Program-made: the position numbers and the translations under genes
Notes under the pieces: model-generated
Told to the model about the DNA's origin: nothing
What the model saw: the letters and a program-made list of their open reading frames with translations, nothing else
The model's database searches: none
Source: Macrostomum lignano
Taxonomy: Eukaryota
Direction: 5' to 3'
NCBI GenBank assembly: GCA_002269645.1
Contig: NIVC01003150.1
Span: 1-64,000 of the forward strand
DNA: 64,000 bases
Shown here: piece by piece, positions 5,192-27,582 of the stretch
Layout: the number at the start of each line of letters is the position of its first letter
Position numbering within the stretch: the stretch's first letter is position 1

Positions 5192-5197
5192 GGGGGT
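5192..5197. repeat. Target site duplication, left copy (GGGGGT; right copy 15701-15706)
   Basis: Identical hexamer directly outside both TIRs; 6-bp TSD is typical of Polintons. Confidence 0.9.
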
Positions 5198-5842
5198 ACT
5201 ACTAAGGGATTCCGTATGGCGCGATTTTGCGAAGGTCCGTCGGGCTGATGTCGGCCTCTAGCACCGCGGCAAGGTGCTCCCTCGGGGTGTACCACCTCCC
5301 CCGGGGTGTACCTCCAGCGGGGTGGGTGTCCAGCGAGTGTACCTCCAGCGGGGTGGGCCTCCCGCGAGTGTACATCCGGCCGGCTGGGCGTCCAGCGAGT
5401 GTACCTTCAGCGCATGGGCCTCCCTCGGGGTGTACATCCGGCGGGGGGATTCCCGCCCCTCCCACCAATGTCGTGTGCACGCGGTTAGTGTAGGAAGGAA
5501 ACCCCGATGCTGACGCAGCCCTGTACACTGAGCAACCGGCCCCCCATGCGGGGGACAGAGAGCAGCCCCTGTAGCAGGAGGGGTAGTGCGTGGAGAGCCG
5601 CCATCCCCCTGTAGCAAGGGACAGATAACAGGCGGCCCCCTGTAGCAGTATGAGGTGGGGTACAAAGAGACACGGGGTGCTGGGACAGAGAGTGCGTGGA
5701 GGCACCCTGCGCTGCCCTGGCATGTCGCAGCACGCGGCGTGGACAGAGAGGGAGTGTGAGTCACACGGAGGGACAGAGAGCTTCCCCAGGCCGGGGTGGT
5801 AGAGGGACAGACCGGCGGTGAGTGATAGAGAGCTCCCCCAGG
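5198..5842 (+). repeat. Left terminal inverted repeat
   Basis: Begins ACTACTA; near-identical reverse complement of 15061-15700 apart from small indels and one 11-bp block. Confidence 0.95.
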
Positions 5843-5917
5843 CTGCAGAGGGACAGACAGGCCGCGAGCAACGTGTTAATGCAACCATAAATAGAAGCAG
5901 TGTACAAAACCCTCTGT

Positions 5918-6697
5918 ATGGAGAACATGGAAGAGGGTATAACTGATAACCCCTATTTCAGCAACGAGAGCGTGCGCGCCAGATTACCCCTCATTGAAAG
6001 ATTGTTATCAGACACTAGGAAAAGAATCGAGGGATTGACCGCAAAGGAGCGCTTAGAATTCACGTATCTAGCCCGGCTGGCATTCGTAACTGAAGTAAAC
6101 ATTGAGGAGAGAGAGGTGGCGTTGACTTGGGAGGAAGCAGAAGAAGCGATAAAAACCCGGTCCTGTATGGTCACAGCCAATCTATGGAGTGCGGCAATAC
6201 ACCTCAATGACACGAGGGGGTTAATTGACACAGAGTTTGTTAGACAAGTTCACACACGCGTGTGCAGAGGACTGCTCCCGAATGCAGGATCGTATAGAAT
6301 TAAGCACGCCAAGCCAGCAGGCGCGAGTATGTATTACAGTGCCCCAGAAAATATTGAACGGCAGCTGGTAAAATTAACTAGAGACATAAAAGAGCCACAA
6401 ATCTTGCGTGATGCAGTAGTGACAGGAGCATATTTCCTAGAAAAGTTTCTCACCATACACCCCTTTAGCGACGGCAATGGTAGAACTGCTAGGTTGTTAT
6501 TATCAAAGTTGATCAACCGGATTCTGCCAGAACCCGTATCATTTGCGTATGCAAATAGAGACACATATCTCAACTGTCTTTACGAAGCGCGCAGCAGCAA
6601 CCGGGGGCTCCTAGCGGCGTATTTACTTTTATCAATTGAGAGAACCGTTCTACAGTGGAGGGAATGGTTGGAAATCTGTTCAGACGGCAGCCTATAA
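5918..6697 (+). CDS. Fic-domain protein (putative AMPylase), class II-like
   Basis: Complete Fic motif HPFSDGNGRTAR; AGSYR flap; N-terminal TEVNIEE..LTWEE aligns by eye with the FICD inhibitory helix (TVAIEGNTLTLSE). First ATG at 5918. Confidence 0.92.
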   Translation: MENMEEGITDNPYFSNESVRARLPLIERLLSDTRKRIEGLTAKERLEFTYLARLAFVTEVNIEEREVALTWEEAEEAIKTRSCMVTANLWSAAIHLNDTRGLIDTEFVRQVHTRVCRGLLPNAGSYRIKHAKPAGASMYYSAPENIERQLVKLTRDIKEPQILRDAVVTGAYFLEKFLTIHPFSDGNGRTARLLLSKLINRILPEPVSFAYANRDTYLNCLYEARSSNRGLLAAYLLLSIERTVLQWREWLEICSDGSL

Positions 6698-6731
6698 ATA
6701 AATAAAATTGGTATTTCTCAACAATATCGAA

Positions 6732-7085
6732 ATGTACTGGCAATCGGAAATAGTGTACACCCACGTTGACAACGCAGTGCTGGAAGTGGGATATTGGGAC
6801 CCAAACAAACCGCGTTTCCGCATCCACTGTCAAAACTGTAGCTGTCCAGGAGCCGTGTTTAGTCGAGCACAATGGCATCGAATGAAATTTCTGGGCACTA
6901 GCTGCACAGATTACGATCTCGGAGGCGGCGCATCTATCAAAGTTATCGACGGGAAGCGCCTGTACGTAAAAGGAGACTGCGAATTTCACCTGTCAGACAA
7001 AATACTTTGTGCAGTTGAAAAGAATAGAGTCGACAATTTCTTCCACTATTTCTTTCTCGACGAATCTGACGAGTCAGAGGAATGA
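6732..7085 (+). CDS. Hypothetical viral protein, possibly PC4/Whirly-like
   Basis: ATG 39 nt after a TATAAATA box; LEVGY..P.FRI...GAVFSRAQWHRMK resembles the PC4 strand/helix pattern; acidic tail. Fold call is weak. Confidence 0.6.
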   Translation: MYWQSEIVYTHVDNAVLEVGYWDPNKPRFRIHCQNCSCPGAVFSRAQWHRMKFLGTSCTDYDLGGGASIKVIDGKRLYVKGDCEFHLSDKILCAVEKNRVDNFFHYFFLDESDESEE

Positions 7086-7462
7086 GCTGGATTTCTCGAG
7101 ACTACCCGCTTTTATCGAGCAAAGAAAGGGCAGAGTACGAGACCCTGAAAAAGTCCACAGACTGGTTATGCATTTGTCACGGCAAACCAATTCCCGAACG
7201 ATTAGTCACCTTTAATGTCGAGGTAGACGAAATTGGGCAAGGGCCTTACAGCACCCAAGAATATACAGATGCCCGAATTGACTACTACTTTAGAGACAAG
7301 ATGCATTTCAAAGCCAATCTTCAAAGAATGGAGCAGATAATTGCCCCAATATTACAAGAGGATCATCGTGAGAAAATACGGTACCGGAATCACCAGCCGA
7401 TTGCTCCCTCGTGGACGAACACCAAAGGATTTGGCGACCTAAACACAGTAGACCAGTGCTAG
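7082..7462 (+). CDS. Hypothetical viral protein (126 aa)
   Basis: ATGA start/stop overlap with the previous ORF; protein-like composition; no recognised motif. Confidence 0.7.
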   Translation: MSWISRDYPLLSSKERAEYETLKKSTDWLCICHGKPIPERLVTFNVEVDEIGQGPYSTQEYTDARIDYYFRDKMHFKANLQRMEQIIAPILQEDHREKIRYRNHQPIAPSWTNTKGFGDLNTVDQC

Positions 7463-7610
7463 CGAAGTTGACTATCAACCCTCACTGCAGCTGCATTAAC
7501 GACACGCCTCAAACCCCTCGACCAGAAGATCGAAACAAAAGGTTTATTTTTTCCGGATTTCCAACACCGGAAAGTGTCGTTAAAGAAGCACTATAACAAA
7601 AACGCCCAGC

Positions 7611-7640
7611 CACCCCACCCTCCGCCCAAGGGTATATAAG
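7611..7640 (+). promoter_or_regulatory. GC box plus TATATAAG promoter of the SSB-like/TBP-like unit
   Basis: CCACCCCACCCTCCGCCCAAGGGTATATAAG; TATA box at 7633 is 55 nt before ATG 7688. Confidence 0.55.
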
Positions 7641-7687
7641 GAGGCGCTCAGGGTGTGAGACCCACTCTCAGCAACAGCAGCAGCAAC

Positions 7688-8368
7688 ATGGATACCGTTC
7701 AAGACTACAATAGTGTTAGGATCGACCTATTCTCTCTCAAGTCGAGAGGTCCAAGCTACAACGGAACCGAGACGTACGACATTGAGTACGACGAACAGGG
7801 CCCTCTCTATCTTGCCAATGCGACGCCCGTACTGATTGTCAAGGGTGTGAGAACCGACAATGAAGGCCGCGAATTCATCATTCTTTCCCAAAAGCACTTG
7901 GAGAGCTGCATACCAGAAGCGTTCAATTCCGTGTGTCACCAGCTCTCTATCCAAGGAATGGCGCTATTGGGGTACAACCCCACTTTTGGCTGCGACAGCG
8001 CTGCATTCGGATTGGCTCACGACTTTAAAATGTACGACAAGAGCGGCAAGTTGTGCACCGACTACAAGAACAAGACGGGCTACTATAGAGTACTGTTCGC
8101 CCTAGACACGGCGGTGATTCACGACTCGGTTCTAACCGCGGTACCAAAAATTCAACAACTGCAATTCATAGAAGCTCCCAAGCAGGCGTTTGACCGCTGC
8201 TACTGGATTCCACCGTTAAAAATCAAGGTAGGACGCAAGCGCGGAGCTGGTGGAGCTGAGCGGAAACAAAAGCAACCGAAAAAACCGCTTGCAGAACGTC
8301 GTGTGCGTAAACAGGGTGTTTTGCGCAAGGTGGAACCACCTACCGAACTTGGACTGGGCGCGCGCTAG
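7688..8368 (+). CDS. Hypothetical viral protein, possibly OB-fold ssDNA-binding (DUF2738-like)
   Basis: ATG preceded by a GC box and TATATAAG. YDEQGPLYL..TP and YRVLFALDTAVIHD..TAVPKIQQLQFIE..FDRC resemble large-DNA-virus SSBs; basic NLS-like tail. ORF well supported, fold tentative. Confidence 0.65.
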   Translation: MDTVQDYNSVRIDLFSLKSRGPSYNGTETYDIEYDEQGPLYLANATPVLIVKGVRTDNEGREFIILSQKHLESCIPEAFNSVCHQLSIQGMALLGYNPTFGCDSAAFGLAHDFKMYDKSGKLCTDYKNKTGYYRVLFALDTAVIHDSVLTAVPKIQQLQFIEAPKQAFDRCYWIPPLKIKVGRKRGAGGAERKQKQPKKPLAERRVRKQGVLRKVEPPTELGLGAR

Positions 8369-8768
8369 AACGTTTCATAGACCCCGGGCATTGTACAACC
8401 TGAGGATCGGAAAGTGTACAATAAACTTTTTCAAACGTTCATTATCTGCCATTGTTTTTGGTTGCCAATCAACCAACGATGTGCTGCGTCTTTTTGCTCA
8501 ATGTAAACCAAACTCTGTTGTTATCACTACCGGTACTTATCGTGCAGAAGTTAATGTTAAGCCAAACTTTTTCCGCCTTGCCAACTCGAGCTCGCGCTGG
8601 GTTGAGTGGGAGAGTGAGGTATTCAATGGGCTTGTAATAAAGTCCCCATTCCGCAAGGCCAAGTGCCTGCTGTGCGGAAAGAATGGTCGGTTAGTGTTCC
8701 TAGGAATACGAAACTATGACGAACTGTGTAAAATGTACGACCACGTGACTGCTATTCTGCAACTCTAA
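8250..8768 (+). CDS. TATA-binding protein (TBP)-like protein, two-repeat core; no in-frame ATG
   Basis: RLQNVVCV ~ TBP [39 protein letters not shown] ~ [76 protein letters not shown] ~ [46 protein letters not shown]. Frame is open from 8232. Confidence 0.78.
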   Translation: [172 protein letters not shown]

Positions 8769-8806
8769 TTATGCTTTGCTTATAAATAAACAAAATATGC
8801 ACATGT

Positions 8807-9196
8807 ATGCACGCAATGCTTACCACCTTAATAATGACAAACGGAATTTCTCGTCTTTGTTCTTGCCGTCGCGAGCTAGAGGAGCTCGGTGACGCGCGAC
8901 CACATCGAAGGAGGGCCATTATTAGGGGAGCCGATAATGAGTTGATGCAGTGTCTGTGCGAGTTAAGCCACAATGTACTCAAGGGCAATATCGATCTATC
9001 CCCTAGACAGTTTGCAAGGTTGAAACGTTATAGAGAAGCCCTGCATGACATGGCCGACAAAAAACTGTCTATAAATAGGAAGAAGAATATGATACTATCG
9101 GACCCTCAAGTTGGAGGATTCCTACCAATTCTCGCCAAGATTGCTGCTCCGTTAATCACTGGACTGTTTGGTGGTCTGCTAGGACAACGACGTTGA
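8807..9196 (+). CDS. Conserved Polinton/adintovirus small protein with C-terminal GGFLP amphipathic segment (adenovirus pX-like)
   Basis: LCELSHNVLKGNIDLS...QVGGFLPILAKIAAPLITGLFGG pattern; true start may be ATG 8816 or 8834. Confidence 0.75.
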   Translation: MHAMLTTLIMTNGISRLCSCRRELEELGDARPHRRRAIIRGADNELMQCLCELSHNVLKGNIDLSPRQFARLKRYREALHDMADKKLSINRKKNMILSDPQVGGFLPILAKIAAPLITGLFGGLLGQRR

Positions 9197-9198
9197 AA

Positions 9199-9780
9199 AT
9201 GGACAAGTACGTTGTGGTCCCCGAGGAGGAATTCAATCAGCTTAGACAGGGTACTCCGCGAGAAATTGCCCCAAAATCGGAGTACGAAAAACTTGTAGAG
9301 TACAATGCAAAGCTACAGACCCAATTGGCTAAAGTAAAACCCCAAAAGACGACAAAGCAGCTATTTTCTGATAGGCAACAACGTATATGGAATATACTAA
9401 CAGAAAAGCACCCCAGCCTAAATTACAACCAATCGTGGGAAGTCGTTTTTGATGGTGAAACTTGGGGTGGCAGCAACGTTTTTGATCTTCTACAAGCCGT
9501 CACCACCAACACTAATAATCACCCGAAATATTCGACCGCTTTCTGGGCTCTGCTAGACAAGGCCCGTATACCAATGTCTATGCTCGGTCGGAAACAGCTC
9601 CCTGTGGAGGAAAAGAAGGTTGACCATATGGTTGGTACCGATGATTACCGCGATGAATATGAGCACACAATTGCGACAGACACCCGCGATTTAACGACCA
9701 CGCGCAACAAAGGTGTAAATGCTATGCCCAACTTGTGGATCAAGGTGCCGGGATGGGTAAATATCACGATTACCAACTAA
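9199..9780 (+). CDS. Conserved Polinton hypothetical protein
   Basis: MDKYVVVP start and W.VVFDGETWGGSNVFDLL...P....F...L...RIP pattern recalled from Polinton ORFs upstream of integrase. Confidence 0.65.
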   Translation: MDKYVVVPEEEFNQLRQGTPREIAPKSEYEKLVEYNAKLQTQLAKVKPQKTTKQLFSDRQQRIWNILTEKHPSLNYNQSWEVVFDGETWGGSNVFDLLQAVTTNTNNHPKYSTAFWALLDKARIPMSMLGRKQLPVEEKKVDHMVGTDDYRDEYEHTIATDTRDLTTTRNKGVNAMPNLWIKVPGWVNITITN

Positions 9781-9951
9781 GACCGCCCGGAACCGAAAAT
9801 ACGATACTCTTTATAAATAGAACCCTAATCCATACATAACCGCGCCCGGCGGTCATGGGCGCAGCAGCCGCCGCATCAAAGCTTTGTGTAGACAACTCCC
9901 CAGCCGACATTACGTGCAACTATTCATGCTGTGCATCCACACTTGTTGTCA

Positions 9952-11031
9952 ATGAGGGCTCTAACCGCTCTTCGTCGAGTTTACGAACAAGGAGCCGCCG
10001 CTTTTTCAAATGCTGCCCGTGTCTATCAGGAGGCCAAACGTCTGGCGCCAAACCTGACAAGACGCCAAACCAGGGAATGGCTAGAAACCCAACCGAGTTA
10101 CACCCGTCACCGGAGAGTCAACAGGACATTTAAAACGGGAAAAGTAATGTCGGGAGGATTCATGGAAACTCTACAAGCCGATTTGATGGACATGTCGCGA
10201 TACAAACGTTGGAATGACGGACATAAATATATACTAGTTGTTATTGATGTGCTTAGTAAGCAGGCTTTTTGTAGGGCAATTAAACTAAAGAGTGATACCC
10301 CCGCAGCGTTTGAGTCAATGTTGGCGAATGATTTCCCTGCCCGCCCCCTTTACCTGCACGTGGATCGGGGTACCGAGTTTTATAATCAGCGAATGCGCCG
10401 CATACTAAAAGACAATAATGTTAAAATGTACAGCACCAACTCTGTGTACAAGGCAAACATGGCCGAGAGGCTGATTAGAACTCTTCGAAAGCGTCTGGCT
10501 CGCTACTTTGAGCACAACAACACGTGGCGTTGGGTTGACTACTTACCCAATTTGGTAGGTAATTACAACAACACGACGCATTCTACTATTGAGATGAAAC
10601 CGTCAAGTGTAGGGTTCCACAATCAGAAGCGTGTGTGGGAAAAGCTCTACCCGGATCAGCAAAAAGACGACCCCGTATATAAAAAGGGGGATTTTGTGAG
10701 AATTTCGAAATCTCGCCGGGCATTCGACAAGGAGGCGTACGACATGTATAGTGAGGAGGTGTACATTATATCCAAAGTTTGTCCTGGACCCCCACATTTT
10801 TATCGTATTTCTGATTTGTCTGGTGAAGTGATTGAGGGACGGTTTTACTACAATGAACTGTCCAAATCTACCCGACCCGAGCGTTTTGTAATCAATAAAG
10901 TTTTGCGTAGAAACGTGTTAATAAATGGTGTTGCGCACCATTACGTTAGCTGGCGCGGTTATCCCGACACTTTTAATTCATTTGTACCTGTAAATGAAGT
11001 TATAAATATACGTCAACGTAATAATAACTAA
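9952..11031 (+). CDS. Retroviral-type (rve) integrase with C-terminal chromodomain
   Basis: DDE triad LQADL / LHVDRGTEF / AERLIRTL; YILVVIDVLSK; chromo-like YVSWRGYPDTFNSFVP. Confidence 0.97.
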   Translation: MRALTALRRVYEQGAAAFSNAARVYQEAKRLAPNLTRRQTREWLETQPSYTRHRRVNRTFKTGKVMSGGFMETLQADLMDMSRYKRWNDGHKYILVVIDVLSKQAFCRAIKLKSDTPAAFESMLANDFPARPLYLHVDRGTEFYNQRMRRILKDNNVKMYSTNSVYKANMAERLIRTLRKRLARYFEHNNTWRWVDYLPNLVGNYNNTTHSTIEMKPSSVGFHNQKRVWEKLYPDQQKDDPVYKKGDFVRISKSRRAFDKEAYDMYSEEVYIISKVCPGPPHFYRISDLSGEVIEGRFYYNELSKSTRPERFVINKVLRRNVLINGVAHHYVSWRGYPDTFNSFVPVNEVINIRQRNNN

Positions 11032-11034
11032 TGC

Positions 11035-12170
11035 ATGGCTACCATGCATCTCTTTCTGCCTAGCAATGCGTGCCCCGAGCACTATCCCGAAAATAATCCG
11101 GCTCATTATTTTATTAATTTACCGGACACTCTCCACTTTCCGAATCATGAGGTTTGCCTCGAACGGATCTACTTTACCAAAGAATTTGAATCTTTCAAAA
11201 AATCTATACCGATCACCATTCGCGAACAGGAGGGCCTCTTGACGGCTTCGTCGTTTGCAAACCTTTGTCTCGCAGCGGGTCTGAAAACCCCTGAAGAATG
11301 TATTTCCGGCTTTCTAAACGGTATCCGATACGTTGAAGGGGATAATAAGAAAATTGTCTTTTTAAGAACATCCCCAACCGCCTTTATGATTGTGAATACT
11401 TCAAAATCCACCGTCGGCATCAAATTCCCGGATACCCTACCCAAGGTGTTTAAACTAGTCGCCGGCTTCGAGTCTAATGAGGATCTACCTACTGAACTCG
11501 TATTACACGCGGGGTGTGCAGCCTCCATCACCGCAGTTGTTGAGGAACCGACTGTGCAGTCAATGGACCATGCTCCAATAATAAGACAAGTTACTAGCGC
11601 AGCGTCTGATCAAATATTTTTTATGCAGGGAGGATACTATAGTACACCTAAAAGAATGGTGGAGGAACTCAACAATTTAATTTGGAAACGGATCAAAGAT
11701 CTCATAGCGGCTCCAGCACCTAGAACGGACTTTTTCGGATACAGCGAAGTTACGAATAGGTGTTATTACATTGGCTCGATGGATTACATGTTTGGGCTGG
11801 GGCGCTTGACCGGCATGCTTGGTTTCCCAGAGCATGATTATACAACCCCATTTTTCGGTATATCGGACTTTCAGCCACATCAATGGAATTAACCGGTGGA
11901 ATACAAACAATGTACATCTATTCGAGCATAGTCGATTCTGTTATTGTAGGAGACGTTAAAGTTCCTCTGTTGGGAGCTATACCGATGGATCCCAAAGTTC
12001 AGGGCGGTCGCGAGTACTACGAGTTTGTCAATCCGGCATATCTACCGCTGGTTAAGCACCCATTCAAAACTATTGAAGTACAAATTAACGATGATATGGG
12101 CAGGGATATGACAAAAGTAATGAGGGGCAAGACCGTCTTGAGCGTTAACATCCGCGAAAAGAAGCTATAA
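11035..12170 (+). CDS. Minor capsid protein (penton), split by a 1-nt frameshift near 11851-11855
   Basis: N-terminal HLFLPSNAC..YPENNPAHYFINLP (11035-11892) and C-terminal MYIYSSIVDSVIVGDVKVPLLG..YEFVNPAYLPL..IEVQINDDMG (11883-12170) are the two halves of a Polinton penton. Confidence 0.85.
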
Positions 12171-12213
12171 ATAAACAGCACAGCCTCAGTAAACTATATC
12201 CTAGTGCTTAATC

Positions 12214-12558
12214 ATGCCTTCTATTCTGATTGGTGGAGCTTTGCCTGTTTTCGCGGGCGCCCAGAGGGGCAACGGTTTGTTTGGAAGCATTGCCCGCTTC
12301 GCGCTGCCAATTCTAAAGAGTTTTGGTAAAAACGTTCTCCGTCATGGTACTAGAGCCCTAGCAACTACTGTTAACGATAGCCTCGAGCAAGGAGGCAATT
12401 TGAAGGAGTCTGTCCTGCGCAATTCTGTTCAGGCTGCCAAGGACGCCTTTAAAGACACGGTTACCCAAAGGGGTAGCGGACGAAGAAGAAAAAAGGCTCC
12501 GAAGCGTCTCAATTCAGACATTTTCAGCACTATAAATAAAAAGCCCCGCTTCAATTAG
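12214..12558 (+). CDS. Polinton core/membrane-lytic-like protein (QRGxG motifs)
   Basis: FAGAQRGNGLFGSIARFALPILK amphipathic helix, second QRGSG, basic tail with DIF. Confidence 0.75.
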   Translation: MPSILIGGALPVFAGAQRGNGLFGSIARFALPILKSFGKNVLRHGTRALATTVNDSLEQGGNLKESVLRNSVQAAKDAFKDTVTQRGSGRRRKKAPKRLNSDIFSTINKKPRFN

Positions 12559-12587
12559 ATTCGCCGAATCGAGTCTGTCTACTAAAC

Positions 12588-13871
12588 ATGTCCGAGTGTC
12601 TGTGTACAAAGTCCGAGTTTGAGCTCTTTGCCCCTCGAGCCCACCAGATTGCCGCTGTAGGTTCAACTACTGAAGAAATCCACCCGGTTGCCAGCGTCGA
12701 AAATGCGAGTGTGGTTGAGTTTAGAATTGTGGGCGGCGAGACGTTTGTCGATCTTAATGACATTGATCTCGAGATTAAAGGTTGTATTAAAAGAGCTAAT
12801 GGAGCCGATTTGGCGGCGGATTCAAACGTGGCGCCAATCAATTACCTCTTGGAGACCATGTTCAAAAACGTGTCTCTTTCCATAAATGGTACACATATCG
12901 AGTCTAGCAACAACAACCATGCCTACAAGGCGTACATTCGTACATGCTTGAGTTATGGGTCTGATTCAAAGTCTAACCAACTGCGGATGATGGGCTACGC
13001 TAAAGACGCTGGGGGTCAAATGGCTGCGGTTGGAAATCCTGGCTTTGTAACTCGCAAGGCGATGGCTGCCGGTTCTCGAACATTTCACCTGTATGGCCCT
13101 CTTAGTCTCGACTTTTTTGTCACCAACGATCGTATGCTGCTACCCTACACTGATATGGTGGTTACGCTCACTCTGCAAAATTCGGGATTCGTTGTAGAGA
13201 ATCACGCCGAAGGGGTTGATGCAAAGTTGGTTCTTCAAAGTGCAAAATTACACGTTCGTCGGGTAAAGGCTAACCCCCAACTGGCCTTGGAGATTGAAGA
13301 ACAGCTGGCAACTCAGAATGCAGTCTACCCCATCGAGCGCCTCGTTGTACACAACACCTCTGTCGCTGTAGGAGTTCGCGACGTGTCAATCAATAATATT
13401 TTCCCGGAGCAGAAGCCTAAACTTGTCATTATGGGGATGGTAAATAGTGCCGCATATAACGGGGTGGCTACCCATAATCCGTTCAATTTCGAGCCATTTG
13501 GGGCTGACAGTGTGGCCCTGTACAAGGACGGTGTCAGTCTGTGCGGTCAACCATTCACTCCAAGGTTCGCTGCCCAAAACTATGCTCGCGAATACGCCAT
13601 GCTGTTTAAGAGCCTAGGGAAAATGAATCGCGATTTGGACATTGACCTGTCATATTCGGATTATCGCGCCGGTTACTGCTTATTTGCGTGGAATCTAATG
13701 CCCGATATGGAACTGGGTGGACATAGCATGCCTCGCGAGAGAGGGAATCTGACCCTACAGATAAAGTTTTCTGCAGCCCTACCTGCCGGGATTAACGTTT
13801 TGGTGTTTGGTTACTTTGACAACGCGGTGCAAATCACTAGAGGCCGCCAGCCCATTCTGGACTACGTATGA
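12588..13871 (+). CDS. Major capsid protein (double jelly-roll, Polinton PY)
   Basis: 427 aa; CTKSEFELF, EFRI, INYLLETMFKNV, YKAYI..LSYG, PKLVIMGMV..AYNG...NPFNF, GYCLFAWNLMPD, GNLTLQIKF. Confidence 0.95.
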   Translation: MSECLCTKSEFELFAPRAHQIAAVGSTTEEIHPVASVENASVVEFRIVGGETFVDLNDIDLEIKGCIKRANGADLAADSNVAPINYLLETMFKNVSLSINGTHIESSNNNHAYKAYIRTCLSYGSDSKSNQLRMMGYAKDAGGQMAAVGNPGFVTRKAMAAGSRTFHLYGPLSLDFFVTNDRMLLPYTDMVVTLTLQNSGFVVENHAEGVDAKLVLQSAKLHVRRVKANPQLALEIEEQLATQNAVYPIERLVVHNTSVAVGVRDVSINNIFPEQKPKLVIMGMVNSAAYNGVATHNPFNFEPFGADSVALYKDGVSLCGQPFTPRFAAQNYAREYAMLFKSLGKMNRDLDIDLSYSDYRAGYCLFAWNLMPDMELGGHSMPRERGNLTLQIKFSAALPAGINVLVFGYFDNAVQITRGRQPILDYV

Positions 13872-14305
13872 ACACGTTGGAAATTTTGGAGTGTTTAAAA
13901 CTACCTGTGGAAGTGCACGTTTGCCCTCTCGACAGAATTCCTGCACCTGTTTACCCTGCTGCATATGTAATTAATTTTGACACGGGTAATCTGCCAGGCA
14001 CCCACTGGGGACTGATTTGCCTACACGATGATAAGAGTGTGACATTTTTTGACCCTCTGTGTATTGAACCCGTGCCGGAATTGCTCTCGGCTTGGATCTC
14101 GAAGCATGTACATTCACCTGTTGCTATGAATCGCCACCCTGTTCAACACCCTCTAAGTGTAGCGTGTGGGCCGCATGTGATTTTTGTGGCCGAAAAGCAC
14201 TTTTTAGAGGGGTTGTCGATTGAAAAGATTTTAAGGGAATGTTACTCTACCAATCTGCTTGAAAATGATTTGATGGTTCGAAAACATGTTCTACAAATAA
14301 AATAG
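13868..14305 (+). CDS. Adenain-like cysteine protease
   Basis: Catalytic residues present: GTHW, FFDP, VQHPLSVACG. Confidence 0.95.
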   Translation: MNTLEILECLKLPVEVHVCPLDRIPAPVYPAAYVINFDTGNLPGTHWGLICLHDDKSVTFFDPLCIEPVPELLSAWISKHVHSPVAMNRHPVQHPLSVACGPHVIFVAEKHFLEGLSIEKILRECYSTNLLENDLMVRKHVLQIK

Positions 14306-14339
14306 TTTTTAATATTTGGAGTGTCAACTCGCCCTGAAA

Positions 14340-14969
14340 ATGTACCAAACAATTGATCCTGACGCTCTAAAGTTTGCTCCAAATACTTCGGCGATTTTTG
14401 CTGGTGTTAACCAGAGCGGAAAAACAACTCTTGTTAAAGAATTGCTGCGAAACGAGTTTTTTCAGGACCCTAAGCCTGTTCGCGTTGATTGGTTTGGGCA
14501 CTATCCAGACCCGGAACTGTTTGAATTACCGTACCCTGTCAATTTTCGCTCGTCTACATTTAACCCTGAAACCTATGTTCCCGCTCCGAATATTCTACTC
14601 GTTGTCGATGATCAAATGCAAGCCATGGAAAAAAACGCTGCTTTTACCGCATTTTTCACTCGCAAAGTCAGCCATGTGGGATTCCGGCTTTGGTACCTTG
14701 TACAAAACCTGTTTGCCAAGGGCAAGGAGCACCGCACTCAATCCCTTAACGCAAACTACCTTGTATTGTTCCGCAATGTACGGGACGTTAGTACAGTCGC
14801 CCATATTGCAAAGCAGCTTGTCCCCGCTAACCCAAAAAGTTTTGTTCAAATGTACGAAGACGCCACTAGGGAGCCCTACTCCTACTTGATTGTTAATTGC
14901 TTGCAGAACGCATCTGTTCGCTACTATGCTAATGTGTTGGGGCGCTACCCCGTAGTTTATGCTAAATAA
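14340..14969 (+). CDS. A32/FtsK-HerA genome packaging ATPase
   Basis: Walker A GVNQSGKTT, Walker B LLVVDD, LVQNLF, RTQSLNANYLVLFRNVRD. Confidence 0.95.
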   Translation: MYQTIDPDALKFAPNTSAIFAGVNQSGKTTLVKELLRNEFFQDPKPVRVDWFGHYPDPELFELPYPVNFRSSTFNPETYVPAPNILLVVDDQMQAMEKNAAFTAFFTRKVSHVGFRLWYLVQNLFAKGKEHRTQSLNANYLVLFRNVRDVSTVAHIAKQLVPANPKSFVQMYEDATREPYSYLIVNCLQNASVRYYANVLGRYPVVYAK

Positions 14970-15060
14970 AACACTGTTGGAGAGCTTTGCTCTGTTTGCC
15001 GGATGGCCTGAACCTGAAACAACTAAAATACGTGTTTTTTCTTTTCAAGTCCTCTACTGC

Positions 15061-15700
15061 CCTGGGGGAGCTCTCTATCACTCACCGCCGGTCTGTCCCT
15101 CTACCACCCCGGCCTGGGGAAGCTCTCTGTCCCTCCGTGTGACTCACACTCCCTCTCTGTCCACGCCGCGTGCTGCGACATGCCAGGGCAGCGCAGGGTG
15201 CCTCCACGCACTCTCTGTCCCAGCACCCCGTGTCTCTTTGTACCCCACCTCATACTGCTACAGGGGGCCGCCTGTTATCTGTCCCTTGCTACAGGGGGAT
15301 GGCGGCTCTCCACGCACTACCCCTCCTGCTACAGGGGCTGCTCTCTGTCCCCCGCATGGGGGGCCGGTTGCTCAGTGTACAGGGCTGCGTCAGCATCGGG
15401 GGTTTCCTTCCTACACTAACCGCGTGCACACGACATTGGTGGGAGGGGCGGGAATCCCCCCGCCGGATGTACACCCCGAGGGAGGCCCATGCGCTGAAGG
15501 TACACTCGCTGGACGCCCAGCCGGCCGGATGTACACTCGCGGGAGGCCCACCCCGCTGGAGGTACACTCGCTGGACACCCACCCCGCTGGAGGTACACCC
15601 CGGGTGTACACCCCGAGGGAGCACCTTGCCGCGGTGCTAGAGGCCGACATCAGCCCGACGGACCTTCGCAAAATCGCGCCATCTGCCAGTCCATAGTAGT
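15061..15700 (-). repeat. Right terminal inverted repeat
   Basis: Ends TAGTAGT; CCTGGGGGAGCTCTCTATCACT at 15061 is the reverse complement of 5821-5842. Confidence 0.95.
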
Positions 15701-17499
15701 GGGGGTCACGCCAGTTAAGGGTCACAGGGACGGATCAAGATCTCTCTTGAAGGGACATCTGTTTCGCAGGGGATCATTTTATCATTTCATTTCAAGAGAA
15801 ATTCAAGCGAGATTATAGCGCTATAATTAGCACCACAGTAGGGATCGTAATGCTATTTTTGGTGTCACAGGAGGGATCTTAGTAGCATTGATCGCAGATG
15901 GGATTTGACTCCCTGCAGACGTGGATCCAGAAAATTTCTTGAGGAGGGAACCCCTACACCCTGACGAAGCCCTTAAGCGCCAAAATAAGAAAGCAAGTGC
16001 CAAACTAGCAAGGGTCGAGGCGCAAAAACTAGGCATCATATTGCTGGCAGTCAAATGACGGTATCTCCTGTGATTTATTGACCGTTTATGTTACCAATGT
16101 GCCGGATTTACGAGTAACTGGAAGAAGAAGCAACACCTGCTTCTTACAAGTTCATTTCGGATTTGAGAGAGGCGTTGGAGAAAAGTTGGAACAAGGTTTG
16201 GCGGAATAGGCGAGCCTCCCCGCCGCATCCCGGACGGACCGGAGCCCCTGCAGTTAAGTCAAGCAAGCTACTATTTGAAACAAAGCTCCTCCCTCTTATG
16301 CGCTACCTTGGAGACCGCTATTTAACTGCGACCATATCTCGTAAATAGACAAATGTACAATGCTTTCAAACTAGTCATTGTGGATAGAAATAAGTTCGCA
16401 TGAATAACATCAAATCACGCTATTTTGATCTCCAATTGGAAGCCTTGAATAGCAGAGAAATCCGAAAGATTTCCAACAAAGCTATCAGCCCCATTTAATC
16501 CCTTTCGGGGCGATTCCGGGTACATGGGAGTGATTCAACGCACATTTGATTTTCCCATCATGGTTCCGAAATTAAAGTTGGACAAAGAAGAGACACCTTT
16601 TAGGGAAATAAGTTAAGCTTAGACGGTAAATTAGTGCATTAGTGCCAGACAGAGAGTATTGAAATTGAAAGCATGCATCAGCTTTTAGAGCGCAGCGATA
16701 AAGGCGGATCAATTAGGTTCAGTCAAGCTGGCAAAGCGTCAAATATTGTATATGGATAAAATGATGTGGAGAATGTTTTTTATAAATTCACTCCGCGAGT
16801 CAAGCTGGTGGAAATCTATTTCACATATTGATGTTCTCTGTACGTCAGTTTTATCAACTAAATTCATTTCTATACGAACCAGAATTAATTGATCAAACAG
16901 AAAATATATAATAACTGAATAGTTCAGTCAAAATATGAAAAGTATGGTTTCTCTTTAATAAAAACCTTATGCAAGTTTCTAAATATAGCCATTCCTAAAT
17001 CAGGTGCCAAAAGGTTTGAGGATATAAAAACACAGCAATCTAAGCAGCATCCTTGACAGCAGAAGCAGCAGACAGGATGCTGGCAATGGCCGCCCGCAGT
17101 GAGTGTGTGGCAACAACAAATGACCAGCCTCTATGTTTAGGACGCAATTAACAACAAGTCAATGTTTTGTAATTGCACTTTAGAGCAACGTAATGGATGG
17201 AGCTTTACAAGGAAAGCAACTTAAACACTAGGCCAGTAATGGTATAAGCCATCAGAGTGGTTAAAGGACCTAGGCAGCACCGGGACGACGAGTAAGAGGA
17301 TGCATTAAATTACATGAAATTAAGACACCGCATCTGTCTGCCAGTGCCAATGCACATAGAAAACGCACACATAAATATGAATTCTCCTATTCATTGCATG
17401 CACTGTGCAGCATCACTTTCCATTGCACTGATTTAGCCATAGTTTCCATGCAAACCAAATTTATATTTTACGATCAAACCCAAGCAGACATTCCGATTT

Positions 17500-17592: not shown

Positions 17593-18094
17593 CATAAGCC
17601 TGGGGTTTGGCTCTCGTGACTATGACGAACGCGAATGAGTGCGACCGCACACGGAATCGAAGCATTAAGAGTTGAGCTGTTTCTGCACTCAAGTGGCTTG
17701 GTGGACTCTATCGCGATTAATGGCCCTGTGCACCTGTTCTAGCATGCACAGACTGACGGAAAAAGGACAGTTCAACCTACCTAATCCAGTTGCGACAGAC
17801 GCAGCAGCCGGTGGCAGGTACCGCTGCCTGAATGCGCAAGGCAGCTCCCAGGAGACACTGCATGCATTAAAGAACAGTTTAGGCCAATGCTGCAGAGCCA
17901 TTCTGGGTTGACTAAGTACGCAACTCACTCAGCTAGTCATAGAATAATAACAGGCTGGGAAATAGCAGGTGTCTAACATCAGCTACCTGGCTATGGAGCA
18001 CGTAATAATTATTTGAACTGACATCGATGCTCAGTCAGTACTGCGGTAAGCTTAGACAGCTGGCGACTTGCTGGGCCAGCCTGCTAGACTGCCG

Positions 18095-18632
18095 ATCTGG
18101 GAGGCTGGTGCAGCAACTGAGGATCTGGGAGGCTGGCCCAGCAACTGAGGATCTGGGAGGCTGGCTCAGCAACTGAGGATCTGGGAGGCTGGCCCAGCAA
18201 CTGAGGATCTGGGAGGCTGGCCCAGCAACTGAGGATCTGGGAGGCTGGCACAGAAACTGAGGATCTGGGAGGCTGGCCCAGCAACTGAGGATCTGGGAGG
18301 CTGGCCCAGCAACTGAGGATCTGGGAGGCTGGCCCAGCAACTGAGGATCTGGGAGGCTGGCCCAGCAACTGAGGATCTGGGAGGCTGGCACAGCGACTGA
18401 GGATCTGGGAGGCTGGCCCAGCAACTGAAGATCTGGGAGGCTGGCCCAGCAACTGAAGATCTGGGAGGGTAGCACAGCAACTGAGGATCTGGGAGGCTGG
18501 CCCAGCAACTGAGGATCTGGGAGGCTGGCCCAGCAACTGAAGATCTGGGAGGGTAGCACAGCAACTGAGGATCTGGGAGGCTGGCCTAGCAACTGAGGAT
18601 CTGGGAGGGTGGCACAGCGACTGAGGGTCTAG
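18095..18632. repeat. 28-bp minisatellite (~18 copies)
   Basis: Unit CAGCAACTGAGGATCTGGGAGGCTGGCC. Confidence 0.92.
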
Positions 18633-20226
18633 GATGTTAGCGGTGAGCCAACAACGGAAAATTGAGGTTGGTGAAATTCGCGGAGGATGGTTATCAAGCA
18701 CATGCATGGATACAAGGAAAAAGGTTATTGAGTTTCCATCACAATCCACGAAAACACCGAATTTCCCTATTATCCTATTTAGAGTAGTAATGGAAGCGAA
18801 AGACAGACAAAATTAAAGACACCTGTACTAAAAGATATGCAATATAAGTGGCTATTTCTGAAAGTGGCCGTTTATTTAGAAGTTACCCTTTCAATTATCA
18901 AATGTGCTTTAACCATACGCCAAAAAGCATAATATTGCTCTACTAGATTGGGTTGTTGGTTGTCGGTGTGTGTACTTTAATGTCTGGGACTAGATTGGGG
19001 GCTGGTTGCCGGTGTGTGTATTTTAATGTCTGGGACTAGGTTGGGGGTTTGGTTGTTGGTATGTGTACTTAAATTGGCTGGGACTAGATTGCGGGGTTGG
19101 TTGTTGGTGTGTGTACTTTAATTAGCTGGGACTAGATTAGGGGTCTGGATGGTTGGTTGTAAGTGCTTACTTCAAAGAATAGGCTACAGTGACAGTAAGT
19201 ATTATAAGTGTTGCGTCACCAATGCCAATTAATATAAAGGCAATATGATTTAATAAAATGTTTCAATGGAAAGTATATATATATATATATAACAGTTAAT
19301 CTGGTTTTAAAATATTTAGTGTTACATCGCGCAAAAATATTATAAGGAAGCAGTTATGCTATATATAATTTAAAAAATAGGTAGATATCAGCCAAAATCT
19401 GACGAAACAAAAGCTATTATAAAAACCGACACCAGCAGAAGCGGAAAAATCCGCGGTCAATAAAATCACCTCTGATACATGTAGTATAATAAATCTCGTG
19501 AATAGAAAGACGCGCAGACAACTTCGGCTTAAAATATGAGCACAAGAGCATACGGCAGCAAAGCACCAGGCCCCAAGTGAGGAAAGCAATTAGTTAAAAG
19601 TACAAGGTACCAGTCTATTTGTAAATGACCTTAGTTGTAAGCGTGTTATAATTCCACGCCTAGATTGCATGCACCAGCACCGACATTGTGACTGACCTTC
19701 GGTTCAATAAACAAGCCACACCAGAGACCAATAAACAAATCATTTATACGCCATAAATCATGTACAAGCACGAAGTAAACAATTTGTAATCCCTGGATTA
19801 ACTAGACTAGCTGGAGAGGTTATCAATAATAATGCAAATTATTAAATTCTGCTGAAATCTGATAAGATATGCGAACATGTAATATCAAGTAACAAATACT
19901 CGTAAGTAGGTATTAGAAGTAGTAGAACCCATTGTAAGAGGTAAAAGTCACTAAGAAATCGTAGTCATTGGTTTCGATCGCTTTCTCTGCCGTCAAATAG
20001 TTTAACAAACTAGCTAGGTAAAACGGTTTACGCTACATATCGGTAGTGTGAATATAACTGCAAATAGTATGCAATACGATAGGATACCTTTCAAAAATTA
20101 CTTTTTCGATACATATCGGCAGTCCAGAAGCAATAGAAACTATGCCTCTCTAAAATAATATACGCAACATATCGGCAGACAATGCGACAGAATTTTGAAA
20201 GGCCAATAGTGCCAGTCCAGGGATCG

Positions 20227-21135
20227 TCAGTCCAGGCCAACGGACGGCAGGTGCCGGTCGGACAGGGCGCCGCTCCGGTGGTAGCGATCCCGATCGCCGT
20301 AGTCACCGTCGGTGCCCTGGGTGGCCAGAGTGGCCGGCTTGGCCGTCAGAGGCAGCTCGGGCACCGCGGTCGGCTTCAACACCAGCTGGCGAGCTTCGTC
20401 ATCATCATCATCATCATTGTCGCCTTCTCCGCCTTCACCGTTAGCATCGCCGTGACCGTGGTGACGCTGACTGGCCGGGCAGCAGCAGCGACAGCAGCAG
20501 CACCGACGAAGCTGCCTAGCCAAGTCGGTCAGCCAGTCGGTCAGGGAGAACTGAGCGGTGATGCCTGGAGCGGCGCCCGGGTAGGCCCGGCCCAGGTAGA
20601 GGTGCAGGGCGGCCAGCAGCAGCACGGCGGCGAGGGCGTACTCCCAGCGGGTGGCAAACATTACGGCCAGACAGGCTATAGCGGTTGCTAAGGAGACCCA
20701 ACGGTTGCTAAGGCTGGCGTAGCGAGCGGTTGACTTGTCTAGAATCGCTGAAGGTGAAGGAGGAACCGCCTGCTGCTGCTTGTCAGGCGAGGCGGAAGAC
20801 TTCACCGAGGCGGCCGAGCCATTCCGCCTGCGCTCGGCTGGAAACAGCTTGTCCAGGTCGCTGCTGCGGGACAGAGCCCGCTGCCTGTTGCCGGCCAGGT
20901 CTCCCGCAGTCTCCGGCCGAGCCGCCGCGGTGGTCACGCTCTTGGCGGCGTCGAAACGCCTGCGCTGACGTTGCTCCAAGTCGAAGGACATTGCCAACGC
21001 GAAATAGGCGTAGTTCACAGCGGCGTAGGTAAGTAGGAACGGCATAGCAACTATTGGACCCAATAAGTTTACGTTGCCAATCAGGATAAATAGCAGGGAG
21101 ATGCTGGCCACAGTTAATAGGGAGTAGACGGGCAC
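20227..21135 (-). CDS. SLC12A8: SLC12A8-like, exon 3
   Basis: PFLLTYAAVNYAYFALAMS and NRWVSLATAIACLAVMFATRWEYAL; acceptor TTTCTCTTTGCCCAG, phase 0. Confidence 0.85.
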   Translation of the reverse strand: MPVYSLLTVASISLLFILIGNVNLLGPIVAMPFLLTYAAVNYAYFALAMSFDLEQRQRRRFDAAKSVTTAAARPETAGDLAGNRQRALSRSSDLDKLFPAERRRNGSAASVKSSASPDKQQQAVPPSPSAILDKSTARYASLSNRWVSLATAIACLAVMFATRWEYALAAVLLLAALHLYLGRAYPGAAPGITAQFSLTDWLTDLARQLRRCCCCRCCCPASQRHHGHGDANGEGGEGDNDDDDDDEARQLVLKPTAVPELPLTAKPATLATQGTDGDYGDRDRYHRSGALSDRHLPSVGLD

Positions 21136-21194
21136 CTGGGCAAAGAGAAACGATTGCTGTTTTATTTAAAAACATTCAAAAGACCAGTAGAAAA

Positions 21195-23722
21195 GCGGGT
21201 CAAATCGGGTCAAGCTAGGTCAAGCCAAGTGAGAAAATCGGTCAAGCTAGGTCAAGCCAGGTGAGAAAATCGGGTCAAGCTGGGTCAAGCCAGGTGAGAA
21301 AATCGGGTCAAGCTGGGTCAAGCCAGGAGAAAAAATCGGGTCAAGCTAGGTCAAGCCAGGTGAAAAAATTGGGTCAAGCTAGGTCAAGCCAAGTGAGAAA
21401 ATCGGGTCAAGCTACGTCAAGCCAGGTGAGAAAATCGGGTCAAGCTACGTCAAGCCAGGTGAGAAAATTAGGTCAAGCTAGGTCAAGCCAGGTGAGAAAA
21501 TCGGTCAAGCTGGGTCAAGCCAGGTGAGAAAATCGGTCAAGCTGGGTCAAGCCAGGTGAGAAAATCGGTCAAGCTGGGTCAAGCCAGGTGAGAAAATCGG
21601 TCAAGCTAGGTCAAGCCAGGTGAGAAAATCGGGTCAAGCTACGTCAAGCCAGGTGAGAAAATCGGTCAAGCTGGGTCAAGCCAGGTGAGAAAATCGGTCA
21701 AGCTGGGTCAAGCCAGGTGAGAAAATCGGTCAAGCTGGGTCAAGCCAGGTGAGAAAATCGGTCAAGCTAGGTCAAGCCAGGTGAGAAAATCGGGTCAAGC
21801 TACGTCAAGCCAGGTGAGAAAATCGGTCAAGCTAGGTCAAGCCAGGTGAGAAAATCGGGTCAAGCTGGGTCAAGCCAGGTGAAAAAATCGGGTCAAGCTA
21901 CGTCAAGCCAGGTGAGAAAATCGGGTCAAGCTAGGTCAAGCCATGTGAAAAAATCGGGTAAAACTAGGTCAAGCTAGGTCAAGCCAGGTGAGAAAATCGG
22001 GTCAAGCTAGGTCAAGCCAGGTGAGAAAATCGGGTCAAGCTAGGTCAAGCCATGTGAGAAAATCGGGTCAAGCTAGGTCAAGCCAGGTGAGAAAATCGGG
22101 TCAAGCTAGGTCAAGCCAGGTGAGAAAATCGGGTCAAGCTGGGTCAAGCCAGGTGAGAAAATCGGTCAAGCTGGGTCAAGCCAGGTGAGAAAATCGGTCA
22201 AGCTGGGTCAAGCCAGGTGAGAAAATCGGTCAAGCTGGGTCAAGCCAGGTGAGAAAATCGGTCAAGCTAGGTCAAGCAAGGTGTGAAAATCGGGTCAAGC
22301 TGGGTCAAGCCAGGTGAGAAAATCGGGTCAAGCTGGGTCAAGCCAGGTGAGAAAATCGGGTCAAGCTGGGTCAAGCCAGGTGAGAAAATCGGTCAAGCTA
22401 GGTCAAGCCATGTGAGAAAATCGGTCAAGCTGGGTCAAGCCAGGTGAGAAAATCGGTCAAGCTGGGTCAAGCCAGGTGAGAAAATCGGGTCAAGCTGGGT
22501 CAAGCCAGGTGAGAAAATCGGTCAAGCTGGGTCAAGCCAGGTGTGAAAATCGGGTCAAGCTGGGTCAAGCCAGGTGAGAAAATCGGGTCAAGCTAGGTCA
22601 AGCCAGGTGAGAAAATCGGGTCAAGCTACGTCAAGCCAGGTGAGAAAATCGGGTCAAGCTAGGTCAAGCCATGTGAAAAAATCGGGTAAAACTAGGTCAA
22701 GCTAGGTGAGAAAATCGGGTCAAGCTAGGTCAAGCCAGGTGAGAAAATCGGGTCAAGCTACGTCAAGCCAGGTGAGAAAATCGGGTCAAGCTAGGTCAAG
22801 CCATGTGAAAAAATCGGGTAAAACTAGGTCAAGCTAGGTCAAGCCAGGTGAGAAAATCGGGTCAAGCTAGGTCAAGCCAGGTGAGAAAATCGGGTCAAGC
22901 TAGGTCAAGCCATGTGAGAAAATCGGGTCAAGCTAGGTCAAGCCAGGTGAGAAAATCGGGTCAAGCTGGGTCAAGCCAGGTGAGAAAATCGGTCAAGCTG
23001 GGTCAAGCCAGGTGAGAAAATCGGTCAAGCTGGGTCAAGCCAGGTGAGAAAATCGGTCAAGCTGGGTCAAGCCAGGTGAGAAAATCGGTCAAGCTAGGTC
23101 AAGCCAGGTGTGAAAATCGGGTCAAGCTGGGTCAAGCCAGGTGAGAAAATCGGGTCAAGCTGGGTCAAGCCAGGTGAGAAAATCGGGTCAAGCTGGGTCA
23201 AGCCAGGTGAGAAAATCGGTCAAGCTGGGTCAAGCCAGGTGAGAAAATCGGTCAAGCTGGGTCAAGCCAGGTGAGAAAATCGGTCAAGCTAGGTCAAGCA
23301 AGGTGTGAAAATCGGGTCAAGCTGGGTCAAGCCAGGTGAGAAAATCGGGTCAAGCTGGGTCAAGCCAGGTGAGAAAATCGGTCAAGCTGGGTCAAGCCAG
23401 GTGAGAAAATCGGTCAAGCTACGTCAAGCCAGGTGAGAAAATCGGGTCAAGCTAGGTCAAGCCAGGTGAGAAAATCGGTCAAGCTGGGTCAAGCCAGGTG
23501 AGAAAATCGGTCAAGCTAGGTCAAGCCAGGTGAGAAAATCGGTCAAGCTGGGTCAAGCCAGGTGAGAAAATCGGTCAAGCTGGGTCAAGCCAGGTGAGAA
23601 AATCGGTCAAGCTGGGTCAAGCCAGGTGAGAAAATCGGTCAAGCTGGGTCAAGCCAGGTGAGAAAATCGGTCAAGCTAGGTCAAGCCAGGTGAGAAAATC
23701 GGGTCAAGCTAAGTCAAGTCGG
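21195..23722. repeat. 32-33-bp satellite, ~2.5 kb, in SLC12A8 intron 2
   Basis: Unit GTCAAGCT(A/G)GGTCAAGCCAGGTGAGAAAATCG(G). Confidence 0.97.
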
Positions 23723-23834
23723 GAAAGAAACCGGGTCCCCTTGGTCAGTAAATCGAGTGGATAAAGTATATAAATCGGTTCAAGAAGCAAACGGAAGCAA
23801 ACAAATAGTGGAACAGATCAAGCCCAACACAAAC

Positions 23835-24557
23835 CTGCACAGAGAACTTGCGAACAGCCAGGGGTTCCATGAAAGCCAATTTCGTATCAGCGGCTATTGC
23901 CGACAAAATTCTACAGGCGCCGGACATGCCACCGAGAGCGGCGCTGAGCGCGCTAACGTAGAGGCCGCACAGGAATAGCGGGCCAAGCAGGGATACCTTC
24001 TGAGCGATGGCGTAGTCTGTTAGCAGAGCCTGACGGTAGCAGGTGGCGCCCAGCACCATGGCGAAGGTGAGGTACAGCAGGCAGCTGGCGCCGATAGCGC
24101 ACAGGCTGCCGAGCGGTATGTTGCGCTTCGGATCGCGCAGATCTGCGCACATATTAACGCCGGACATGACGCCAGTTATAGTTGGAAAGAATACACCAAG
24201 CACAGTGAAGAAACCATTAACGGAGTCATTGTCGACGTGGTACCCATGGTTGCTAGGTGGAAAAGTGTTGTTACTAAGGACGCCAGCTGAGTAGCCCGCA
24301 AAGCCGACTGGATGGCGCCAATTAGCGAAGGAGCCGAGCAGGAAGTCCAGCACAGCGGCCAGCAGCACTGCCAGCAGGGCCAGCTGCAGTCGGACAACCC
24401 ACTTCACCCCGGCCGCGTTGACGCCGACCAGGCCGACAGTGACGGCGACGGCGAATCCGCGGGCTGCCCAGGCTGCCGACGTTGACGACGGCGCCAGCGG
24501 GAGCAGAGAGGCGGCCGATTCGCCCAAGCCGACGGCGTTCAGAGAGGCACCGATGGT
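23835..24557 (-). CDS. SLC12A8: SLC12A8-like, exon 2
   Basis: FFTVLGVFFPTITGVMSGVNMCADLRDPKRNIPLGSL; AG acceptor 24558-24559 and GT donor 23834-23833, both phase 0. Confidence 0.85.
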
Positions 24558-27524: not shown

Positions 27525-27561
<37 letters not shown>

Positions 27562-27582
27562 CATCTATCTATCTATCTATCC

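Follow-up and report, generated by a model that had tools for sequence, protein, structure and literature searches.

How can a Polinton persist in an animal genome when it encodes a capsid and an integrase but no recognisable enzyme with which to copy its DNA? The question is raised by a Polinton (Maverick)-type element of 10.5 kb located at positions 5198-15700 of a 64,000-nt stretch of contig NIVC01003150.1 of Macrostomum lignano (the whole stretch is called the window below). The element was assigned to a lineage without the DNA polymerase PolB, and we are close to certain that this lineage is real, old and recently mobile. How it is copied is a matter of weighing, in which a satellite of other Polintons is tentatively preferred.

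Layout and recurrence of the PolB-less element

The element is bounded by terminal inverted repeats (TIRs) of 654 nt (5198-5851, + strand, beginning 5'-ACTACT) and 650 nt (15051-15700, - strand), which match at 639 positions. It is flanked by two + strand copies of a 6-bp target-site duplication (TSD), GGGGGT (5192-5197 and 15701-15706). All genes are carried by the + strand, in the order Fic, open reading frame 2 (ORF2), ORF3, ORF4, a TBP-like frame, two accessory ORFs, an rve integrase, a penton gene, a small basic ORF, the major capsid protein (MCP) gene, a protease and an ATPase. The biggest unassigned gap is 171 nt. No PolB was detected in the element by tblastn with 35 PolB queries or by Pfam. 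None of its ORFs matched a helicase or a primase-polymerase or is big enough for the known ones, and an Rfam search of the element gave no match. The first-pass annotation, made from the sequence before these searches, had described TIRs, TSD, integrase, MCP, penton, protease and ATPase packed into 10.5 kb with no polymerase, primase or helicase, and neither room for PolB nor a remnant of it; this was confirmed. Its description of the element as intact holds for the ends but not for all of the genes: the penton frame is broken near 11870-11890, while ORF3 and ORF193 fall short of the lengths seen most often in sister copies. These breaks may be specific to the window copy, or assembly errors.

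The layout recurs in the assembly, where all copy counts are lower bounds. Two subfamilies share it: A, which includes the window element and whose members are 97-100% identical, and B, at about 75% DNA identity. In the MCP search (98 of 451 candidates scored), matches fell near 100%, 88% and 30% identity, and 98 of the 98 scored were either in A/B or near 30%. Searching with ORF4 located some 29 positions of A type and 34 of B type (counted by hand, some being repeats of one insertion), and the left arms of 21 A and 19 B copies were compared. Eighteen of the 21 A arms were colinear from the TIR through the MCP gene; the other three stop at a contig or sequence edge, and two of these hold non-coding inserts. 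The inserts (1.1 and 3.4 kb) were considered as a place for a hidden PolB and rejected, since neither contains an ORF as long as 110 aa or matches PolB. All 19 B arms retain the order ORF4-TBP-accessory-integrase-MCP, without Fic and ORF2 and with TIRs of their own; the B element is about 9.6 kb long and its left TIR begins about 1.2 kb before ORF3 (one copy measured). Among copies with both ends, the window element being one of them, the 6-bp TSDs of the two sides match in 12 of 13 for A and in 15 of 17 for B, and comprise 12 and 13 different sequences respectively. With the 35 M. lignano PolB queries, no tblastn match was obtained in the window or in 116 A/B loci, and control loci matched. 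Two of the checks proposed beforehand are answered by these results: the layout recurs with different TSDs, and no sister copy with the same TIRs and a pPolB gene was found among these loci.

Proteins of A and B are 49-88% identical. The ratio of nonsynonymous to synonymous divergence (dN/dS) between them is 0.04-0.11 in the 8 of 11 shared genes for which it could be computed, with dS values of 1.3-2.7; three genes are saturated. Because purifying selection is seen at near-saturated dS, virion and integrase functions have long been needed without PolB. The mean difference among 15 A MCP genes is 0.0097, which indicates recent activity. The earlier view of a PolB-less lineage and not a decayed copy is upheld by the second subfamily, which has the same layout at saturated synonymous divergence. 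In an MCP tree of 19 rows, A, B and three metagenome MCPs (80-81% identity) form one clade with support 100/100; the deeper forks are weak and the rows were without named group 1 or group 2 references. Scans of viral contigs and metagenomes returned one distant MCP locus (29% identity) and no member of the A/B clade, so that the PolB-less layout is shown in the M. lignano genome only.

The integration and virion genes fill the right part of the element. The rve (DDE) integrase (9952-11031, 359 aa) matched PF00665 above the cut-off (E 1.9e-9), has a dN/dS of 0.10 and ends in a C-terminus judged chromodomain-like by eye. The minor capsid (penton) gene (11035-12170), interrupted in the window, reads through as one frame of about 378 aa in 10 of 19 sister copies. 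ORF114 (12214-12558), known from the ORF listing and the A/B comparison, encodes a small basic protein, perhaps a core protein. The MCP (12588-13871, 427 aa; dN/dS 0.036) is of the F54H12.2-like Polinton type, a class assigned by sequence homology, and a PDB sequence search gave no match; it is 30-35% identical to animal Polinton-type MCPs (32% to a Patiria protein). The adenain-like cysteine protease (13868-14305, 145 aa) was recognised by Polinton homology and a weak Pfam match (E 0.06), and the packaging ATPase (14340-14969, 209 aa; dN/dS 0.055), an A32/FtsK-like P-loop protein, by Pfam and Polinton homology. Penton, protease and ATPase are all present by homology to genes of PolB-bearing Polintons, and together with the MCP they are 25-42% identical to such genes in M. 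lignano.

Some observations were made beside these genes. A 92-aa ORF starting with MGAAA (9855-10133, + strand) overlaps the integrase in another frame, 43 nt past a TATA box at 9812; an 88-aa counterpart exists in subfamily B, and its conservation extends to the stretch ahead of the integrase start. The ORF may encode a genuine overlapping protein that is myristoylated. A third, degraded subfamily was seen on contigs C100, C4654, C5131 and C1382, in which Fic, ORF4 and the TBP-like frame survive as remnants that are about 76-94% identical. Contig C1313 (about 245-256 kb) carries a rearranged, inverted pair of B capsid modules, and on C150 (about 79.7 kb) the right end of an A copy passes into repeated ATPase-region sequence. 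Elsewhere in the window, an LTR retrotransposon-like element with gag- and pol-like frames was recognised by eye at 37409-46500; one leader peptide is found at both 37409 and 46445, which suggests LTRs. Minus-strand stretches at 20227-24581 and 34915-35517 look like host exons, of a cation-chloride cotransporter-like gene and of a MAP kinase kinase. Tandem arrays with periods of 15-67 nt are frequent at 17948-34700 and 52700-61100, and a 2.6-kb microsatellite of TATC type lies at about 27.4-30.0 kb.

Hypervariable TIR tips and the resident Polintons

The extreme ends of the element vary in a way that the rest of the TIRs do not. Positions 8-27 of the left TIR (5205-5224, + strand) form a hypervariable tip of constant length between ACTAC and TTTTG. 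In the window copy the right tip is unlike the left at 7 positions, and seven of the nine mismatches between the TIRs lie at 5205-5215. Among A copies, pairwise diversity over positions 7-27 is 0.40 (16 types in 37 ends); among B copies it is 0.34 over positions 6-27 (21 types in 37 ends). Inward of the tip it falls to 0.002 (A) and 0.07 (B), in a stretch that is partly the search anchor. Within one insertion the two tips usually agree: they were identical 9 times out of 13 in A and 10 times out of 14 in B, as against 15 of 483 A pairs and 2 of 513 B pairs taken from different insertions. In a control PolB-bearing family, 11 ends, some of them repeats of one insertion, had one tip sequence. 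A and B share the spacing ACTAC, 22 nt, TTTTG, the ends of A starting with ACTACT and those of B with ACTAC-G/A. No description of such tips or of the A/B family was found in the literature searched, a scope outside which lay Repbase, supplements and most subscription journals.

Panhandle repair during strand-displacement replication is known from adenovirus work. The end-matched tips suggest a similar process here, in which a free molecule uses one of its ends as the template for the other. Protein-primed origins have ends beginning with A and a short repeat, which ACTACT and ACTAC-G/A resemble. Something appears to diversify the tips. Possible causes are that the element evades a DNA-binding factor of the host, that its ends adapt to varying helpers, or that initiation is error-prone. 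Being insertion-specific and end-matched, the tips would be an indirect record of end copying and could serve as natural barcodes for tracing transposition.

PolB-bearing Polintons are numerous in the same genome. With 91 of 974 candidates scored, PF03175 matched at least 119 times, in many cases within a long open frame, and a comparison of 35 PolB sequences sorted them into 9 clusters. The MCPs of the PolB-bearing elements examined are about 30% identical to that of the window element, and ORF3 and ORF4 had no homolog in the compared PolB loci. A 5'-AG terminal motif is one criterion of the classical Maverick-Polinton definition. It was seen in five of the five resident PolB families with readable ends, which start 5'-AGTAGT, but not in A and B, which start 5'-ACTAC and, unlike the PolB-bearing control family, have hypervariable tips. 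To judge from these comparisons, the autonomous Polintons examined are not sisters of A/B.

Two of the PolB families deserve separate mention. An AT-rich one (about 31% GC; for example C2506, about 60-73 kb) accounts for 20 of the 35 PolB sequences. It gave no tblastn match to the proteins of the window element and looks like a separate polinton-like virus (PLV). A bipartite system, with a PolB-only partner, was considered and rejected, as this largest AT-rich cluster has penton-, ATPase- and capsid-like ORFs of its own, recognised by eye. In a numerous GC-rich family (C1131, C173 and similar), the PolB frame is interrupted at positions shared between copies, perhaps by introns.

Left arm and nuclear signals

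The left arm begins with two accessory genes that subfamily B is without. The first (5918-6697, 259 aa) encodes a Fic-domain protein (Pfam E 6.6e-14; motif HPFSDGNGRTAR) and the second, ORF2 (6732-7085, 117 aa), has no family match. Among the relatives of Fic that were seen, the nearest (45-52% identical) lies in a genomic locus that is present on three contigs and has no other long ORF in its 1.9-kb surroundings. On C458 (74345-77542), C2412 and C42, a pair of Fic paralogs is separated by 2.6 kb, with 52% and 38% identity to the element Fic; they are either a host gene pair or an old insertion. ORF3 (7082-7462, 126 aa) is kept in subfamily B with a dN/dS of 0.11, and is 171 aa long in 14 of 18 sister copies. 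Right of the TBP-like frame lie a conserved Polinton accessory ORF (8807-9196, 129 aa), with homologs in PolB-bearing Polintons of M. lignano, and ORF193 (9199-9780), with a homolog in one such Polinton and a length of 208 aa in 8 of 20 sister copies.

Between these, ORF4 and the TBP-like frame are likely one spliced gene. The ORF4 domain (7688-8227, 180 aa; dN/dS 0.08) would be exon 1, the unspliced frame extending to 8368, and the TBP-like frame (8295-8768, 157 aa; dN/dS 0.09), which has no ATG, would be exon 2. A probable GT-AG intron (8228-8294), 67 nt long in A and 195-206 nt in B, with phase 0 at either border, would link the two in frame. Splicing is likely because the GT and AG sites and their flanks are preserved in 40 of 40 loci while the length between them varies, in B through all three phases, and because all six full-length ORF4 homologs show the corresponding peptide pattern (K-V, a variable basic linker of 18-59 residues, then A/S-E). 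The span of all three phases favours splicing over a TTG start or a frameshift, and the peptide of homolog P0036 would disallow TTG at that place. Contigs from four sequencing runs, three of them presumed to be RNA, cover the element evenly, non-coding TIR included, and contain no splice joint; this cover is DNA-like and uninformative on splicing and expression.

The product of 8295-8768 appears, weakly but consistently, to be a divergent member of the TBP family. Its C-terminal repeat scored 22.4 bits against the Pfam TBP cut-off of 22.9 (E 1.1e-4), the frame gave E 1.3e-4 with NCBIfam, and its top PDB match is a TATA-binding protein (E 0.0023); an N-terminal repeat went undetected by profiles. 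The TBP-like ORF reported by the first-pass annotation therefore stands as to similarity but is probably not a gene of its own, since it has no ATG and looks like an exon 2. The DUF2738-like identity given there to ORF 7688-8368 found no support in any search. Neither ORF4 nor its homologs matched DUF2738 (PF10927) or a single-stranded DNA-binding protein in Pfam, and nothing usable came from PHROGs, NCBIfam, PDB, phage tblastn or the ESM Atlas. Fold models of ORF4 were poor (pLDDT 33.5 and 42.5), too poor to judge the claim, and fold searches with them were empty or non-significant. Seven ORF4 homologs were found, at 36-60% identity. One of them, P0033, and the distant MCP P0005 both list a longest contig of 8848 nt, which may be coincidence; if they share one contig, the ORF4 module is found together with a second capsid lineage as well. 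The viral-contig scans did not recover this contig.

A further proposal had been that the TBP-like and DUF2738-like cargo came from gene exchange with a large DNA virus. TBP-like genes adjoin PolB in resident Polintons, with a full-length one (Pfam E 6.9e-21) in one case and partial genes at five further loci, so the gene can be accounted for without a large-virus donor; with DUF2738 undetected, the proposal is not sustained. A PolB-bearing Polinton on C114 (about 251-265 kb) was seen to carry a TBP-like gene and a PC4-like ORF. A figure legend on MELD-viruses also names a TBP-like gene (PMC8502044).

The motif TATAAATA occurs 7 times on the sense strand of the element and 0 times on the reverse, where 0.16 were expected and the maximum in 300 resamples was 2. 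Six TATA-like boxes lie 26-57 nt upstream of an ORF start. The TATA boxes and the probable intron point to host RNA polymerase II (Pol II) in the nucleus and not to a cytoplasmic giant-virus factory; a cytoplasmic, virophage-type helper would fit poorly.

Possible routes of copying and known systems

From the observed layout, recurrence, selection, termini and tip pattern we infer a satellite Polinton with a free replicating phase, having a virion and integrase of its own and borrowing a protein-primed polymerase and terminal protein in trans. This reading is tentative, and our belief in it stops a little short of half. Integrated copies would be transcribed in the nucleus by host Pol II from the TATA boxes, and the rve integrase would excise the element. 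Polymerase and terminal protein, most likely supplied by autonomous Polintons active in the same cells, would copy the free linear genome by strand displacement, while panhandle pairing of the TIRs would copy one tip onto the other. The ORF4/TBP-like product might give DNA-binding help for transcription or origin use. The element's own capsid (MCP, penton, protease, ATPase) would take up the DNA, and re-integration would create a 6-bp TSD. Potential polymerase donors exist in the genome, namely the PF03175 matches counted above. The whole picture, in which an old, still mobile lineage of animal viruses lives as a satellite of other Polintons, with a full virion, a terminal motif of its own, a spliced TBP-like regulator and 20-nt tips so quickly diversified that almost every insertion has its own, is offered with slightly more reserve than the borrowing itself.

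Several points weigh against borrowing from other Polintons. No autonomous family with the same ends was found among the five readable ones, from which the two largest PolB clusters are excluded. The TIRs of A and B match no compared PolB locus. Polintons carry the terminal protein as one domain within the polymerase polypeptide (PMC11161782). In contigs of the four runs the depth of the element is only about 4-6x that of its flank, which fits integrated copies alone, and no TIR-TIR junction or end pile-up was seen in these contigs, which cannot show ends. Finally, the matching of tips could stem from intrachromosomal gene conversion.

Copying by host enzymes is the strongest of the other explanations, though we think it unlikely. 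The integrase would excise and re-insert the element, host replication or gap repair would multiply the copies, and ORF3 and the ORF4/TBP-like product may be an unrecognised initiator or recruit host factors, with the capsid carrying excised copies between cells or animals. In its favour are ends unlike those of every autonomous family checked and the nuclear expression signals. ORF3, ORF4 and the TBP-like frame fill the left arm under strong selection, the first two with no counterpart in the compared PolB loci. For polymerase-less protist elements, Bellas et al. allow for alternative replication or undetected enzymes (PMC10120064). However, cut-and-paste keeps left and right tips in their pairs, so near-unique, end-matched tips are left unexplained, and no ORF has the size of a known helicase or primase-polymerase or matched one.

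Dependence on a large DNA virus, which on infection would wake and replicate integrated copies in the manner of a virophage host, is rather improbable. It has precedents in protists and in polinton-like elements associated with entomopoxviruses (PMC11296320). Fic and the variable tips would suit conflict with a second virus, and several proteins of nucleocytoplasmic large DNA viruses (NCLDVs) are among the non-significant fold hits of ORF4 (best E 0.41, from the model with pLDDT 42). No large-virus helper sequence was found in the assembly, a weak negative: there was no match to an NCLDV capsid, D5 helicase or DUF2738, two of these searches being without a positive control, and the PF00136 matches all fall into three intron-split, host-polymerase-like groups. 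The TBP-like gene, which might have hinted at such a virus, is already present in resident PolB-bearing Polintons. Only a nuclear large virus would fit, since the TATA boxes and the probable intron indicate the nucleus.

That the element arose by deletion from a PolB-bearing sister sharing its TIRs, which was missed or is missing from the assembly, is very improbable: non-autonomous Polintons are known and the searches are lower bounds (21 A and 19 B arms of the roughly 29 and 34 positions), but A and B share the PolB-less layout despite unalignable TIRs and saturated dS, the scored MCP candidates leave no group between A/B and the matches near 30%, and six metagenome homologs retain the ORF4 tail that overlaps the TBP-like frame, so that this explanation is largely refuted already in the M. 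lignano assembly.

With such a PolB-less lineage in M. lignano, a laboratory flatworm, two questions could be put to the test in an animal: do Polintons pass through a free virion phase, and does one live as a parasite of another? Animal Polintons almost always carry PolB in the published accounts available (PMC8502044; PMC11131425; 10.1101/2023.08.22.554363), and a nematode survey retained only blocks with all five query proteins (10.1101/2023.08.22.554363). Because Polintons are defined by their polymerase, and often screened for it, replicase-free lineages would be missed or dismissed as decayed. Replicase mosaicism is general (10.64898/2026.10.13.758929; PMC11071296); the PolB-less state described here is old, under selection and recently mobile, in an animal.

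Compared with known systems, the element resembles Maverick-Polintons and adintoviruses (Polintoviricetes) in its rve integrase, F54H12.2-like MCP, penton, protease, ATPase, long TIRs and 6-bp TSD. Jeong et al. give TIRs of 100-1500 bp, TSDs of 5-8 bp and lengths of 13-25 kb (10.1101/2023.08.22.554363), whereas A (10.5 kb) and B (about 9.6 kb) are smaller and have neither pPolB nor a replacement replicase. The element thus fails the classical definition on PolB, and is a Polinton, as far as homology can tell, by virion module and integrase. Group 2 Maverick-Polintons likewise have the animal Polinton virion module without pPolB, often replacing it by helicase or primase-polymerase genes (10.64898/2026.06.19.733378); in A and B nothing recognisable stands in its place. 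Small size, a capsid module and the lack of any replication gene that could be detected are shared with the replicase-free subgroup VC40 among aquatic PLVs (10.64898/2026.06.19.733378) and with polymerase-less endogenous viral elements of protists (PMC10120064). Those belong to another capsid lineage and other hosts, unlike the present element, which has an rve integrase and a protease and is amplified in an animal genome. The last comparison is with satellites. The helpers of mavirus and of entomopoxvirus-associated PLVs are cytoplasmic large viruses. Like mavirus and these PLVs, the element would work as a satellite with its own capsid, and it can sit integrated; unlike them, it has no PolB or primase-helicase module and bears nuclear signals (PMC11296320).

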